Shown here: positions 38,511 through 63,178 of the stretch, one piece after another
Numbering within the stretch: the stretch's first letter is position 1
Layout of the letters: each line of letters opens with the position of its first letter
NCBI GenBank assembly: GCA_030649895.1
Contig: JAUSEX010000052.1
Span: 80,988-144,987, forward strand
Length of the DNA: 64,000 nt
From: Candidatus Omnitrophota bacterium
GTDB lineage: Bacteria; Omnitrophota; Gorgyraeia; Gorgyraeales; Gorgyraeaceae
Reading direction: 5' to 3'
Made by a program: the position numbers and the translations under genes
Notes under the pieces: model-generated
What the model was told of the DNA's origin: nothing
Databases searched by the model: none
What the model saw: only the letters and a program-made list of their open reading frames with translations

Positions 38511-38560
38511 ATGCTTCTCGACTTCATTCACTTCGTTCATTTCGCTCGAAGAATATTAAG
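38511..38560. repeat. Intergenic palindromic element copy R1. Its AATATTA end overlaps the TAA stop of the upstream gene.
   Basis: CTTCTCGACTTC...TTCGCTCGAAGAATATTAAG. Confidence 0.7.
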
Positions 38561-39440
38561 TCGTTAATAGTTCTCCAATAACCGTATCAATAGTCTGCCA
38601 TACATCAGGCGATTCTATACCTAATACACTTTTAAGACGGTTGGTATTTAATGTGCTATACCGCCCTCCTGTTTCCTTATCTTCATCTATCTTCGAAGCT
38701 TCCGTCGGATTCACTAATTTCGGGTCACATTTCAGCAATTCCGCTATTCTACACGCGATATCAGCATATGAGATATCCTTGTCTCCCGATACTTGTAAAA
38801 GACCTGAAATCTTTTGCGAAGCAGCTAATTTTAAAACCGATACCGCGAATGACAACGAAACAGGCGATATATACTTATCTTTAAAAGGATATATTGCCCT
38901 ATCCTCCTTAAAATCGTTTATCCATTTGGAAAAAAAAATATTTTCTTTTCCAAGTATTTTCGTAAAACGAACAACTGTTACAGAATCTTTCCATTGATTT
39001 ATTAATCGTTCTGTTTCCGCTTTTTGCCGCCCGTATTCAGTAACCGGAGAAAAAGGTTCCTCAGGCAAACAATATGGAATCGAACCATCAAATACCTGAT
39101 TTGTAGATAGATAAATTACAAATATGCCTTTATTTATAAGATTTTTTATTAACTTACAAGTTCCATCTACATTTACACGCCTTGATGTATCAGGATCACG
39201 TCTACATTCTTCTAATTTTGTCACGCCTGCACATATAAAAGCTGTATCAATGCCTGATGGAAAACTCCAGGATTCCGGATTATCCAAAAGATCCAGGTAA
39301 AGATGCTTTTGGCCTACGGTATCTCGGCATCTCGTAGTGCCAATTACTTCTTCACCAGACATCTCGAAATACTGCGTTAATGCTTTACCTACAAGGCTGT
39401 CTGACCCTACAATTAGTTTAATATTTTTTGGAGCCATCAA
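38556..39440 (-). CDS. RmlD-substrate-binding-like SDR (sugar nucleotide reductase/epimerase)
   Basis: IKLIVGSDSLVGKAL...YGRQK. Confidence 0.6.
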   Translation of the reverse strand: MMAPKNIKLIVGSDSLVGKALTQYFEMSGEEVIGTTRCRDTVGQKHLYLDLLDNPESWSFPSGIDTAFICAGVTKLEECRRDPDTSRRVNVDGTCKLIKNLINKGIFVIYLSTNQVFDGSIPYCLPEEPFSPVTEYGRQKAETERLINQWKDSVTVVRFTKILGKENIFFSKWINDFKEDRAIYPFKDKYISPVSLSFAVSVLKLAASQKISGLLQVSGDKDISYADIACRIAELLKCDPKLVNPTEASKIDEDKETGGRYSTLNTNRLKSVLGIESPDVWQTIDTVIGELLTT

Positions 39441-40507
39441 ACAAACTCCAGATGTTCTTTGTCCGCGTTAAGATAATCAAAAATAAGCCTGTTTTTAGCA
39501 TCAGCTACACAGTGGTGATTGCAATTGCGAGACGGATTAATCTTGAAAAATTTTTCTTTATCTCTGAACCAGAAATCCTTAAATCTCTTCTCTTTTATAG
39601 AGCCGACCAATCCCTCGCTAAGATTATAAGCTTTGTCCTGGCATGGATATATATTAAGATCAGCTCCTATGATCGGCAAAATTTGTAAATAAGGGCACCA
39701 TGTATATATCTTATTAAACGTCTCAAGCTGGGCATGATATGAATCAAATATCTCGAAACTTTCATTCGAAAACTCATGCAATGCTTTTTCTATCTGAGCT
39801 TTCACTTTTTTTAAAATAGGTTTGTGATACATGTTGTTTTTAATACCGTCGTTATCTATAATACACGGGGAAACTTTAACGCTGTTCACGCCTATATCCC
39901 TGAGTATCTTAATAAGGCCATATATATGCGATGAATTTTTCTTATCAACTATGATATTGATACCCAGAAAACATGCGCCTTTGAGTTTCTTAAAATTTCT
40001 TATATTATTTATCACTTTAGTAAATTCACCGTCCGGAACCCGCCTATAGAAAGAATAGCTTTTATCATCCCATCCATCTATAGAAATCCTTAACCAAGCA
40101 GCATGGCAGGCAAAAATTTCCGCTAATTCTCCGTTAAGTTTCGAGCCGTTCGTTAAACACGCGAATTTGACTTTCGTCTGAGAAAGCTTTTTTACGGTAT
40201 CCAATAAATATAAATAGCAAAAAGGATCTCCACCCCCACTGAATGTAACAGCCTTTACGCCGATTTCCGCGATATCGTCGATGATCTCCATCATCTTTTC
40301 TTTCGGTATATAATCTTTTCGCGCCATATCCTTGCCAAGCTGTTGATTATCCGATCTATACGCGCAATATAAGCAATTATGATTGCACGTATTCGTAGGT
40401 TTTATGCGTATATGAATAGGCGCCATTATGTTATTCGCAGACAACGGCAGTGAATCCAGCTTATCTTTAAAATGGAATATTTTCATCTTTGTATATAAAA
40501 ACCCCAT
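39437..40507 (-). CDS. Radical SAM protein (CNHxCxYC type, Cys-rich C-terminus)
   Basis: TNTCNHNCLYCAYR. C-terminal CPYLQ...CNHHC. Confidence 0.7.
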   Translation of the reverse strand: MGFLYTKMKIFHFKDKLDSLPLSANNIMAPIHIRIKPTNTCNHNCLYCAYRSDNQQLGKDMARKDYIPKEKMMEIIDDIAEIGVKAVTFSGGGDPFCYLYLLDTVKKLSQTKVKFACLTNGSKLNGELAEIFACHAAWLRISIDGWDDKSYSFYRRVPDGEFTKVINNIRNFKKLKGACFLGINIIVDKKNSSHIYGLIKILRDIGVNSVKVSPCIIDNDGIKNNMYHKPILKKVKAQIEKALHEFSNESFEIFDSYHAQLETFNKIYTWCPYLQILPIIGADLNIYPCQDKAYNLSEGLVGSIKEKRFKDFWFRDKEKFFKINPSRNCNHHCVADAKNRLIFDYLNADKEHLEFV

Positions 40508-40518
40508 GACGCTATCCT

Positions 40519-41952
40519 TTATTTAATTGACTGAAACGCGCTGTTAAAAGTCCGCTTTCGCGTCTCTTTTAATTCGTCCTCAGTCATGCCCATCATCGCC
40601 GCGGTCTTTTTGCGTTTTTCCGGATTTGTAAAATTAATCCTATCCCATTCATAAGCTCGTAAAATAGTGAGGTCTCGACTAGAAAACTCTTTTGTCTCAA
40701 TCTGGCCGACATTCCACATGCCTTCTGATTTGTCGAATTCTTCTTTAAAGGCGCTTTCTTTTTCGCAAAGTTCCCATAATTTTGTATTTCGTAACGGCAT
40801 AGCTGTGAATATTTTCGCGTAATCCACATCTATATCTTCGGCGAACTTTATGGTCTGCCTGATCTCGTCCCACGTCTCCGTGGGGAAACCTATTATAAAA
40901 TTGGCCGCAACATAAATGCCTTCTTTCTTAGCTGACCGGGCCATTTCTTTGGCTTGCTCAAAGTTAACCGGCTTTTTTATTATTTTTTTCAACACCCTTT
41001 CGGTCCCAGACTCGATAGCTATGTCTATATACTCGCAGCCGCTTGCCTTCATCAGCTTAATCAGCTCTTCATCTAATTTAAAAACCGCTACGGCTATACT
41101 GGCCCAGGGCATAGCAATATCCCTGTCAATCATTCCCTGAAAAATATCTTTGGCTCTCTGCCTATCGGTAAAAAGATTATCGTCGTCAAAAATAAGGGAC
41201 TTAATTCCGTATTCTTTTTTTAACCACGCTATTTCATCTAATACATTTTTCGCGCTCCGCGGCCTGAACTCCCTACCGGAAATTACCTCTACCTGACAAA
41301 ATGAACACCCGTAAGGGCAACCCCTCGAGGTCATGATGCGCGCGTAGGGATATTTCCTGGGAGAATCAACGCTTTTTCTGTGAGCACTATTAGCGTAGTT
41401 TTTAAAATTTATCAGGTGATATGCCGGCAATGGGATATCATCTAAATCTTTGATAAAATCAGCGTGGCCTGTATTAACAATCTTTCCGTCTAAACTATAA
41501 CAAACGCCCTTTTGAGGAAGCGGATTTTTTTTCATGACATACCCTATTAAATCCCTAAGCGCATATTCGCCCTCGCCTACAACAACAAAATCAATGTTAT
41601 TATCCTTTACAGCCCTCTCCGGGTTTACTGTAGCATAAACCCCTCCCATCACTACAATAATCTCTCTATTAATAGATTTTGCTATTTTTGCTGCTGTATG
41701 TCCGGAAGAAGCATATTGATCCATAAGAACCGTAATCCCCACAATGTCAGGATTAAGTTTTCTCAATTCAGATTTAAACGCATCCTCGCTCATATTTGAC
41801 GTATAAGCATCTAAAATACTAACGTCGCAGATATCCTTTATTACCGCAGCTAAAAGACAGAGATTGTAAGGGGTATAATGCCATAGCGCATTTATATCAG
41901 AATTTACCCAGCGAAAATTTGGCACAACCAGGACTACTTTTAACTTTTTCAT
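40519..41952 (-). CDS. B12-binding-domain radical SAM protein (class B)
   Basis: TSRGCPYGCSFCQ. Confidence 0.75.
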   Translation of the reverse strand: MKKLKVVLVVPNFRWVNSDINALWHYTPYNLCLLAAVIKDICDVSILDAYTSNMSEDAFKSELRKLNPDIVGITVLMDQYASSGHTAAKIAKSINREIIVVMGGVYATVNPERAVKDNNIDFVVVGEGEYALRDLIGYVMKKNPLPQKGVCYSLDGKIVNTGHADFIKDLDDIPLPAYHLINFKNYANSAHRKSVDSPRKYPYARIMTSRGCPYGCSFCQVEVISGREFRPRSAKNVLDEIAWLKKEYGIKSLIFDDDNLFTDRQRAKDIFQGMIDRDIAMPWASIAVAVFKLDEELIKLMKASGCEYIDIAIESGTERVLKKIIKKPVNFEQAKEMARSAKKEGIYVAANFIIGFPTETWDEIRQTIKFAEDIDVDYAKIFTAMPLRNTKLWELCEKESAFKEEFDKSEGMWNVGQIETKEFSSRDLTILRAYEWDRINFTNPEKRKKTAAMMGMTEDELKETRKRTFNSAFQSIK

Positions 41953-41965
41953 ATTCTATCTCTAT

Positions 41966-62564: not shown

Positions 62565-62577
62565 GTTTCACCTCTTT

Positions 62578-62665
62578 ATCTTCTCGACTCTCGCCTGCGG
62601 CGGAATCACTCGAAGCCCCTCGACGCTGCTCGGGGTTAAATAATGTTCGAGCTTGCCGGGAACTA
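62578..62665. repeat. Intergenic palindromic element copy R8 (degenerate)
   Basis: ATCTTCTCGACTC / CGCC-TGC-GGCG / ...AATAATGTTCGAGC. Confidence 0.6.
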
Positions 62666-63109
62666 CTTATTCCAATCGTATGGTATATCGTTATCAAATG
62701 CGTCTAAGCGATATTCGTCAGGGGTTTTATAGTTATAAGCCATGGTAGGGACATTAATAACTATAGCCTCTTTATCGCTTACGCATTTAAAGCCATGATA
62801 TGTGAGTTTCGGGATCTTGACAAGTATCGGGTTATCCAGAGAAATCACAAAATCATTTATTTCTTTGTACGTGGGGGAATCCTCCCTGGAGTCATATATG
62901 GCCAGCCTCATGGCCCCGAACACGCAGGTAAAATGATCGTCCTGCAGTTTATGATAATGCCACGCCTTGGTTACCCCGGGAAACGCCGTAGTCATATAGA
63001 CCTGGCCAAATTTCTGAAAAACAGGCTCGTCAGAACGCAATATTTCCATGAGCCTGCCGCGATCATCCGGGACAATCTTAAGCTTTTTAACTTCTACGCC
63101 TTTTATCAT
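62663..63109 (-). CDS. rmlC: dTDP-4-dehydrorhamnose 3,5-epimerase-like cupin (short RmlC-type)
   Basis: EPVFQKFGQVYMTTAFPGVTKAWHYHKLQDDHF. Confidence 0.7.
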   Translation of the reverse strand: MIKGVEVKKLKIVPDDRGRLMEILRSDEPVFQKFGQVYMTTAFPGVTKAWHYHKLQDDHFTCVFGAMRLAIYDSREDSPTYKEINDFVISLDNPILVKIPKLTYHGFKCVSDKEAIVINVPTMAYNYKTPDEYRLDAFDNDIPYDWNK

Positions 63110-63123
63110 ATAGATCCTTCATC

Positions 63124-63178
63124 TTCTCGACTTCGCTCGAAGAATATTGTTCGAGCGAACAAAGTGAGCCGAGAACTA
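63124..63178. repeat. Intergenic palindromic element copy R9 (outer arms + 28-bp palindrome)
   Basis: TTCTCGAC / TTCGCTCGAAGAATATTGTTCGAGCGAA (63132-63159) / CAAAGTGA / GCCGAGAA. Confidence 0.8.

Follow-up and report, generated by a model that had tools for sequence, protein, structure and literature searches.

The stretch of DNA analysed here (hereafter the window) comprises 64,000 nucleotides (nt) of a Candidatus Omnitrophota bacterium (contig JAUSEX010000052.1 of assembly GCA_030649895.1, positions 80,988 to 144,987 of the forward strand), and nine of its gene junctions are occupied by related palindromic elements that lie at or near a stop codon. This locus raises the question of whether such elements exist as intercistronic signals, as had been proposed in an initial annotation of the sequence, or whether they are inserted DNA. 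The junction elements are recent, dispensable insertions, since close relatives possess the same junctions in an empty form in which the flanking genes overlap. Elsewhere, units of this family bracket the gene of a small Ssn-like GIY-YIG protein, which points to selfish mobile insertions of a recently described kind rather than a purpose-built operon signal. We consider it likely that the elements represent non-autonomous members of a hairpin repeat family, and that the cognate protein of this family is an Ssn-type GIY-YIG nuclease with one domain and a length of approximately 90 amino acids (aa).

The hairpin unit and its copies in the window

Each element is built from a unit that consists of a head, (A)ATATT, and a hairpin of the form N-TTCGAGC-(inner hairpin)-GTCGAGAA-N', of which the closing pair and the inner stem covary. 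The initial annotation had taken the palindrome as the basic entity; palindromes do exist, but that role falls to the individual hairpin unit, which has a 5' head and is approximately 26–45 nt long, while doublets measure 55–90 nt and the longer 'palindromes' resolve into doublets, a nested insertion (55705–55729) or a tandem duplication (56714–56799). Units are arranged as singletons, head-to-head doublets or arrays. When one genome per species was scanned with a strict pattern of the C-type, at least 112 loci were obtained, and the regular expression N-TTCGAG...TCGAGAA-N' retrieved 332 copies from these genome loci and the window combined. The closing bases were C..G in 179 copies (C-type), G..C in 129 (G-type) and other combinations in 24, and the 5' flank was AATATT in 209 of the 332, the 3' flank being variable. 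The TATT directly 5' of the hairpin is 94–100% conserved and the two A residues that precede it 79% and 68%, respectively, and this head orients the unit. The inner part mostly reads C-GA-[hairpin]-GA-G, and the hairpins mainly close with GNA triloops. In head-to-head doublets a single AATATT is common to both units, and 57 of 60 such doublets combine a C-type with a G-type unit, a rule that is also followed by tail-to-tail pairs. As this combination maintains the closing pair within each unit while mismatching the ends of the inter-unit helix, the unit represents the conserved structural entity.

A covariance model (R1) was built from 50 distinct copies of other genomes and run over the whole window with filters switched off. 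It returned 12 matches with E<0.01 and approximately five weaker or degenerate ones, all of which fall in the nine junctions named in the initial annotation, confirming that these nine copies are real and form one internally conserved family. The left 38 kb, from which the element had been reported to be absent, contains no credible R1 match (the best, 2412–2437, has an E-value of 0.06, i.e. chance level). Additionally, ACTTCTCGACTC occurs nine times in the window at up to one mismatch against 0.16 expected, and TTCGCTCGAAGAATATT 15 times at up to two mismatches against 0.04 expected. On the coding strand, the recurrent modules of the junctions are AATATT-CTTCGAGCGA, a small GC-rich hairpin and GAGTCGAGAAG. 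The nine elements are as follows.

Junction A, 38514–38557, minus strand: singleton C-type unit with a degenerate inner part (R1 E=5.8e-7); its head AATATT overlaps the TAA of gene 38556–39440, and 8 nt separate its tail from the ATG at 38505.
Junction B, 43982–44018, minus strand: singleton C-type unit with inner hairpin GGC-GAAA-GCC (R1 E=2.3e-8), 11 nt past the stop of gene 44030–44584.
Junction C, 49506–49545, minus strand: singleton C-type unit with inner hairpin GGCCC-GAA-GGGCC (R1 E=3.1e-8), 12 nt past a stop codon and 13 nt ahead of the next ATG.
Junction D, 55687–55757, minus strand: C-type unit (R1 match 55740–55757, minus strand, E=0.01) whose loop holds a nested short unit at 55705–55729 on the plus strand (E=7.7e-6); the head overlaps the TAA of the fcl-like gene 55756–56685, and wzi in fact starts with the ATG at 55679.
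Junction E, 56697–56799, minus strand: one full consensus unit at 56697–56730 (R1 E=2.6e-12, plus weaker matches), the 23-nt 5' part of which is present four times in tandem at 56714–56799 (three extra copies, upstream of the full unit on the coding strand); the TAA stop of gmd lies inside the first 23-nt copy.
Junction F, 59380–59447, both strands: head-to-head doublet of a G-type unit (59414–59447, plus) and a C-type unit (59380–59419, minus) that share AATATT (R1 E=7.5e-12 and 4.5e-8; fold z=-5.7 to -6.8); the TAG of gene 59447–60754 overlaps its first base.
Junction G, 60762–60874, both strands: composite in flipped orientation (R1 E=8.3e-4, 0.056 and 2.8e-7), made up of a unit at 60762–60807 (minus) with a 25-nt loop insert, a degenerate unit at 60819–60848 (minus) and a short unit at 60843–60868 (plus).
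Junction H, 62580–62663, both strands: degenerate doublet with decayed arms (GTTCCCGGC...GCTCGAAC and GTCGAGGGG...GAGTCGAGAAG), weak R1 matches (E=0.057 and 0.24) and a 1-mismatch motif match; the TAG of gene 62663–63109 abuts it.
Junction I, 63123–63176, both strands: head-to-head doublet of a G-type unit (63143–63176, plus) and a short C-type unit (63123–63148, minus; R1 E=2.7e-10 and 2.8e-7); the TAG of gene 63176–63979 overlaps it.

Copies are thus present in both orientations, with junction G flipped as originally described, and the 28-bp palindrome (11-6-11) noted previously is found at three junctions (59403–59430, 60832–60859 and 63132–63159). It had also been stated that each element begins at or overlaps the upstream stop codon. 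This holds for seven of the nine junctions, where the stop overlaps the element or is no more than 3 nt away (as TAATATT or TAGTTCTCGAC), but not for the remaining two, where it lies 11–12 nt upstream. The distance from the last unit to the next start codon is 7–17 nt.

Among 50 distinct fixed-length copies, 97.8% of cells were paired, a value reached in none of 500 shuffles, and four pairs covaried; the wobble asymmetry in the same copies (8 G:T versus 6 A:C) was uninformative as to the folding strand. The unit sequence AATATTCTTCGAGCGAGCGAAGCGAGTCGAGAAG comprises a purine-rich GA strand, with the consensus TT-CGAG-CGAG-CGAAG-CGAG-T-CGAG-AA, and a TC strand. Judged by its sequence, the GA strand would correspond to two CGAG blocks stacked under a GCGAAGC mini-hairpin. 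The CGAG block (C:G, sheared G:A, A:G, G:C; PMC10085684) and the GCGAAGC mini-hairpin of the d(GCGNAGC) type (PMC13037366) are both documented as unusually stable folds of single-stranded DNA (ssDNA), albeit as biophysical motifs and not as genetic elements. The TC strand would have pyrimidine mismatches in place of the GA pairs, and the GNA triloops and CGAG blocks are confined to one strand. In nearest-neighbour folding, doublets scored z=-5.7 to -6.8, or about -5.7 when folded as RNA. The preference for ssDNA as the probable folding form derives from the chemistry of loops and mismatches and not from folding programs. A selected RNA structure would be expected to show GNRA or UUCG tetraloops; GNA triloops together with CGAG blocks instead point to ssDNA-hairpin chemistry and therefore count against such a structure. 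All six frames of the consensus are free of stop codons, and 43% of 305 units are fully stop-free, compared with 1.7% of random sequences. The minus strand is the G-rich strand of the window and carries most GA units; because of its G-richness it is probably the lagging-strand template, a property that within the window is inseparable from the direction of transcription.

Empty and filled junctions, and copies inside genes

Every long open reading frame (ORF) of the window is located on the minus strand, and Pfam analysis of 30 ORFs between 31.8 and 64 kb identified a surface-polysaccharide locus with genes for NeuB, DegT, RmlD-like and GDP-mannose dehydratase-type enzymes, UDP-glucose dehydrogenases, Wzi, a Wza-like exporter and radical-SAM enzymes, in addition to an IS110 transposase and a ParE toxin. 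The top named matches of its Gmd protein are from Candidatus Omnitrophota. Syntenic contigs of four relatives were compared at the junctions of the window.

L114 (Gmd 94% identical): units absent, with a 19-nt overlap between gmd and fcl and a TAATG overlap between fcl and wzi.
L116 (Gmd 89% identical): no units; overlaps as in L114.
L115 (Gmd 94% identical): one unit at the gmd/fcl junction; the other two junctions are empty.
L119 (Gmd 88% identical): a different repeat family at gmd/fcl, and a long-variant doublet at the UDP-glucose dehydrogenase/epimerase junction.

Occupancy therefore varies between these relatives. Junction D (fcl/wzi) is empty in L114, L115 and L116, with the TAATG overlap (empty form AAAAAATAATGTCATT; filled form GGATAAT(ATTCTTCGAG...GAGAAG)TAATCAAATGTCATT). 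Junction E (gmd/fcl) contains a single unit in L115 and none in L114 or L116, while in L119 it is occupied by the other repeat family. Junction F is empty in L114 and L115, where it reads TTATAG/AGGAG, and in its filled form the doublet is located exactly after the TAG. From these alignments it follows that the stop codons either pre-existed at the target or come from T+AATATT. The REP/MITE-like behaviour (repetitive extragenic palindromic sequences and miniature inverted-repeat transposable elements) that the initial annotation had perceived is upheld. The precision of placement is best explained by the survival of only those insertions that leave both flanking genes intact. That the left 38 kb is devoid of copies would fit a region that was never invaded, because the empty junctions of the relatives have overlapping genes as well.

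The L119 repeat family, GTCATTGCGAGG...CCTCGCAATGAC, has a GTCAT head like that of canonical Ssn repeats; it is located at approximately 5999–6149 of that locus, and 46 copies are present in the 112 genome loci. In addition, the UDP-glucose dehydrogenase orthologue of L119 (1698–3578) measures 626 aa, compared with 435 aa in the window, and contains an intein (PF14890).

Palindromes that delimit genes could in principle be integron-like attC sites, or other tyrosine-recombinase sites formed by the 11-6-11 palindrome, that bound gene cassettes. The single gene orientation, the imperfect palindromes abutting stop codons and the presence of the 28-bp palindrome at three junctions would be in keeping with this. 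However, between one element and the next lie one to seven biosynthetic genes, whose synteny extends to element-free relatives, the junction sequences lack RYYYAAC/GTTRRRY cores, copies occur inside genes, and no integrase is found among the annotated ORFs (31.8–64 kb). We therefore regard a recombination cassette as scarcely credible.

The same family was identified in many metagenome-assembled genomes (MAGs) labelled as Omnitrophota, Patescibacteria and other phyla, one Omnitrophota MAG having at least 30 separate loci for the strict pattern, while a lone copy inside a Wzy_C-domain gene labelled Nanoarchaeia constitutes the sole archaeal evidence. These loci are MAG contigs whose taxon labels come from the MAG records, so that binning errors are possible, and their gene calls are crude longest-ORF calls. 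R1 produced 293 matches in 750 kb of these loci. Among 305 units, 224 (approximately 73%) are intergenic even though crude ORFs cover 87% of the DNA, and the motif is accordingly commoner outside coding DNA, as the initial annotation implied. Its assertion that copies sit only at gene junctions applies to all nine in the window but not elsewhere, where 39 units (approximately 12%) lie deep inside long ORFs and translation passes through them in differing frames. The 176 clusters of units comprised 82 at co-directional, 16 at convergent and 11 at divergent junctions, 37 inside ORFs and 30 at locus edges, and their junction types track the proportions of all gene junctions (p=0.40).

In the case of EPSP synthase (two sites), Mur_ligase_M, ATP synthase gamma, Pyr_redox_2 and Wzy_C, one Pfam domain match spans the insertion. 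Furthermore, 120 Omnitrophota AroA orthologues (396–559 aa) vary in their insertion content, with short insertions at no fewer than 10 positions, many of which stem from this hairpin family (e.g. FSTRSARSKNIVRARP), while other recurrent insert peptides probably derive from other hairpin repeat families. The GTCATTGCGAGG...CCTCGCAATGAC family and the sources of RAGLNLPY, SRLRSGQ and LSPKGRG probably explain further in-frame AroA insertions. A comparison of L043 and L079 at the second AroA site for insertion boundaries was dropped, as the sequences are too diverged.

The principal alternative is that the element functions at the RNA level between cistrons, with hairpins that protect the upstream mRNA, direct its processing, or uncouple and re-initiate translation, and that it is kept by selection. 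Several observations favour such a role: in co-directional singletons the GA strand is mostly the sense strand (24 versus 7, p=0.003), the unit closest to the start codon is in sense orientation in 58 of 82 cases, stops overlap the element at seven of the nine window junctions with tails ending 7–17 nt before starts, and doublets are very stable as RNA. On the other hand, relatives with 89–94% identical Gmd lack elements at the corresponding junctions and have overlapping genes there, copies are maintained in differing reading frames inside enzymes, there is no preference for a junction type, the GNA triloops are of the DNA mini-hairpin type, and no Rfam family was matched at either gathering or permissive thresholds. 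Together with the bracketing of a GIY-YIG gene described below, these data lend no support to the proposal of the initial annotation that a functional intercistronic cassette is the reason for the existence of the element, and we hold an RNA-level function to be unlikely.

A scan for tRNA and tmRNA genes found none, and a literature search on sequence strings and derived peptides gave nothing matching. In blastn searches of phage and plasmid collections the consensus doublet produced just two chance-level matches, both inside Rhizobium genes, and a scan of viral contigs for units gave no match. An intrinsic terminator was rejected, as there is no T run, the 3' flanks are variable and convergent junctions are not enriched. 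Ribozymes (hammerhead, hairpin and twister), a k-turn, a dif/Xer site, attC and a DNA-uptake sequence were likewise rejected, since their defining motifs are missing in the sequence.

A small GIY-YIG gene between inverted units

The 750 kb of repeat-bearing loci contain just two close small GIY-YIG ORFs, and both are bracketed by units in the layout AATATT-[C-type unit]-(2–20 nt)-ATG...stop-[inverted G-type unit]-AATAxT. These ORFs, from a MAG labelled Pseudomonadota and a Doudnabacteria MAG, encode proteins of 90–92 aa that match Pfam GIY-YIG and are 66% identical. A metagenome scan with the alignment of the two proteins retrieved 80 loci. At the 36 loci that encode 60–81% identical proteins, 118 unit matches were found, with a sense unit within 90 nt upstream of the gene in 31, an inverted unit within 90 nt downstream in 31 and both in 28, mostly at 2–20 nt from the gene ends. 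The 44 loci with 41–49% identical genes had none of these units. Flanking inverted repeats of their own, at least 12 nt long, were present at 15 of 43 such distant loci (the 44th having too little flank), and several of these are NTS-like with a GTCAT head, as in L181, where GTCATTCCGGGCTTGACCCGGAATCCAG is found on both sides. The ATG of the nuclease gene in the autonomous, unit-bracketed copies often follows GAGAAG directly or by 2–9 nt with no other Shine-Dalgarno sequence, a feature which would also suit an RNA-level element, and it is plausible that the 3' arm of the unit supplies the initiation context.

The subfamily comprises at least 1,393 sequence clusters, and contigs of named members are typically about 1 kb in length, as expected if assemblies break in repeats. 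NCBIfam gave no match for the protein. Several genes of the window are themselves in a unit-gene-inverted-unit layout, for example gene 59447–60754 between junctions G and F, and both ends of a Logan contig carrying this gene fall in repeats; in Neisseria, this layout lowers transformation (PMC11893778).

Two further GIY-YIG genes were observed in association with other repeats. In an Omnitrophota MAG (L006, 4447–4700) a different small gene (41% identical) is located between leuC and leuD, with a 14-nt inverted repeat of its own on either side, ATCCCGCACCTTTT / AAAAGGTGCGGGAT. On Sphingomonas parapaucimobilis plasmid NZ_CP155752.1 (L202, 1035–1195) a long palindrome, GGGCTTCGACTTCGCTCAGCCTGAACGG...CCGTTCAGGCTGAGCGAAGTCGAAGCCC, is situated ahead of a GIY-YIG gene, which suggests that this widespread type of palindrome may also be GIY-YIG-associated. 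The plasmid homologues of Sphingomonas and Rhizobium showed no match to the SRM expression given below.

The closest known system is the Ssn/NTS pair (Chenal et al., Nat Commun 2025, PMC11893778). SsnA of Neisseria meningitidis is a 94-aa single-domain GIY-YIG protein (cd10448) encoded between NTS hairpin repeats; ssDNA is the only substrate that it binds and cuts, on the forward strand only and a few nt upstream of the repeat, and it binds neither double-stranded DNA nor RNA, repeat RNA included (PMC11893778), which also argues against an RNA-level role for the elements described here. NTS repeats number in the hundreds, are clustered at surface-protein genes, are genic in 2% of cases and lower transformation, and the authors remarked that the layout resembles an insertion sequence and that many Ssn-repeat pairs, each with its own specificity, must exist (PMC11893778). 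The present family shares with this system a GIY-YIG protein that has one domain and about 90 aa, the gene placed between an upstream repeat and an inverted downstream repeat, the 20–50-nt hairpin repeat with a conserved orienting 5' flank, and the dispersed, mostly intergenic copies around surface-structure genes; moreover, its protein is 41–49% identical to those of GIY-YIG genes with NTS-like GTCATTCC...GGAATC repeats. It differs in its head ((A)ATATT instead of GTCAT), its stem of CGAG blocks and its unrelated motif sequence, in the strict alternation of two unit types, in the approximately 12% of copies that are deep in ORFs and in frame, and in its uncultured Omnitrophota and Patescibacteria hosts. 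It is filed here as Ssn/SRM-like in the way it works, since its architecture fits the definition while the SRM consensus fails, and it is very probably a divergent branch of Ssn.

By analogy with SsnA, the GA strand, once rendered single-stranded by replication, repair or DNA uptake, would fold into a compact hairpin, in which three Watson-Crick pairs are combined with two CGAG blocks, containing sheared G:A pairs, and with a mini-hairpin of the GCGNAGC type. The nuclease would bind this hairpin and the TATT head and nick a few nucleotides 5' of the hairpin, and nicking may spread the repeats, restrict recombination of incoming ssDNA, or both. The copies in the window would be passengers in the tight or overlapping junctions of a surface-polysaccharide operon, where only insertions that preserve the upstream stop codon and the downstream start context would survive. 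This filter would account for the seemingly exact placement at gene boundaries, and if the copies influence mRNA stability or translational coupling at all, they would do so incidentally.

Two rival views assign the nuclease a lesser part or none. According to the first, the repeats belong to the host and pre-exist, and the GIY-YIG gene, selfish and of the homing type, simply inserts at tail-to-tail doublets, much as IS110 does at REPs, without being the agent of spread. Many homing endonucleases are found among the GIY-YIG enzymes, the gene occupies the position of the short spacers in tail-to-tail doublets, and unit-rich genomes have not been shown to possess the nuclease gene. Conversely, a repeat family of its own flanks each GIY-YIG subfamily, a sign that protein and repeat have co-evolved, and SsnA binds and cuts its own flanking repeat (PMC11893778); a homing gene on host repeats thus appears decidedly unlikely.

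The second view is that the units are REPs or mosaic elements thereof (BIMEs) mobilised by a REP-associated tyrosine transposase (RAYT), an IS200/IS605-like HUH enzyme. The anatomy is indeed shared (a 5' head with an imperfect palindrome; singletons, inverted doublets and mosaic arrays alternating two unit types), copies are mainly extragenic as are REPs (Nunvar et al. 2010, PMC2817692), and the associated gene is flanked by two inverted repeats in both systems. Yet a phmmer search with IS200 TnpA over 815 kb of repeat-bearing sequence found, within its limited sensitivity, no IS200- or RAYT-like ORF, and clustering of 1,017 neighbouring ORFs revealed no enriched family, transposases included; a RAYT is unsupported on both counts. 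Furthermore, the bracketed gene encodes a GIY-YIG nuclease and not a Y1 HUH transposase (PMC2817692), copies are also found in frame within genes, and REPs are species-specific whereas this hairpin family occurs in many lineages. Mobilisation by a RAYT is accordingly very improbable.

Several points weigh against the preferred interpretation, namely non-autonomous copies with an Ssn-type partner. No nuclease gene is present in the 64-kb window and none was shown in an Omnitrophota genome among the MAG and metagenome loci, while named members of the subfamily are almost all from Patescibacteria. The nearest solved structures are the UPF0213 proteins 1ZG2 and 1YWL, cd10448 and the UPF0213 clade being undistinguished here, and the SRM consensus HGTCWYN(0-2)YYVSBRHN(0-5)WNVSBRGN(0-2)RNCYNB has no match in the window, in the consensus units or beside the 36 subfamily genes. 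The RNA fold anticipated in the initial annotation is borne out for doublets, but single units of 26–34 nt fold no better than shuffles (z near 0 in nearest-neighbour models), and their claimed stability depends on non-canonical pairs, known from nuclear magnetic resonance, that are outside energy models. The three empty/filled comparisons show TAAT or ATAG-like repeats at two sites and no consistent target-site duplication, and the sense bias of co-directional singletons is equally predicted by an RNA-level role. Finally, nuclease activity, cut site and a role in transposition are proposed by analogy, and even for SsnA repeat mobilisation is a hypothesis (PMC11893778).

A wider interpretation, which we advance tentatively and consider possible though doubtful, is that these units and other hairpin families of Omnitrophota and Patescibacteria supply the non-autonomous part of a true class of prokaryotic transposable elements, whose enzyme is an ssDNA nuclease of about 90 aa of the GIY-YIG type, that move via ssDNA, cross phyla and routinely enter housekeeping genes in frame. 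Rickettsia palindromic elements (RPEs; PMC10969869) are comparable in that palindromic selfish DNA is present in frame in unrelated housekeeping genes and adds short peptides; they are set apart by their description, as RPEs are approximately 100–150 bp long and found in Rickettsia, whereas here units measure 26–45 nt and doublets 55–90 nt and a partner gene is identifiable. If correct, a GIY-YIG-driven element class would offer a general explanation of RPE-like 'selfish DNA in proteins'.

The preferred interpretation would tie a repeat of candidate phyla to the Ssn nuclease system of 2025, whose published motif search would miss this hairpin family, and it predicts a very small nuclease with a new ssDNA specificity (TATT head plus CGAG-block hairpin) that may be of use in ssDNA tools. 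Where the Ssn paper offered repeat mobility as a hypothesis only (PMC11893778), the empty and filled junctions and the genic copies (EPSP synthase, Mur ligase, ATP synthase gamma) provide direct comparative evidence of gain or loss between close relatives. For annotation purposes, the family explains odd peptides such as FSTRSARSKNIVRA, over-extensions at ORF termini and assembly breaks in Omnitrophota and Patescibacteria MAGs.

Neighbouring genes and other mobile features

An IS110-family insertion occupies 42645–43945, with its transposase ORF at 42677–43708 on the minus strand (domains DEDD_Tnp_IS110 and Transposase_20), subterminal inverted repeats AAAAGTCAAATAA / TTATTTGACTTTT and a non-coding leader of approximately 240 nt. 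It lies about 35 nt downstream of unit B, which is itself not interrupted. The methyltransferase gene that follows it probably starts at an ATG near 42625 and not at the listed TTG at 42649. The transketolase C-terminal subunit gene at 44030–44584 encodes just 184 aa, with a Transket_pyr domain and without a Transketolase_C domain, and may be truncated, as its end directly precedes unit B and the IS110 element.

Another family of palindromic repeats (CCACCTACGGGGAGGCCTAYGGCCACCCCGTAGG), unrelated to the hairpin units, is present at 50216–50245, 50353–50382 and 53319–53348, on both sides of the gene for the 955-aa Wza-like exporter. Additionally, LAGLIDADG-type homing endonuclease ORFs were noted at two repeat-bearing Patescibacteria loci (L082, 4980–5583, and one more).

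Between the epimerase gene and gmd, a ParE toxin gene (57894–58145) and a RelB-like antitoxin gene (approximately 58146–58352) are located on the minus strand; the pair is present in L115 and missing from L114 and therefore also represents an insertion polymorphism. A zeta-toxin/AAA_33-like kinase ORF (53546–54097) is situated between wzi and the exporter gene and is followed by approximately 250 nt without a long ORF, in which a minus-strand reading frame is open.

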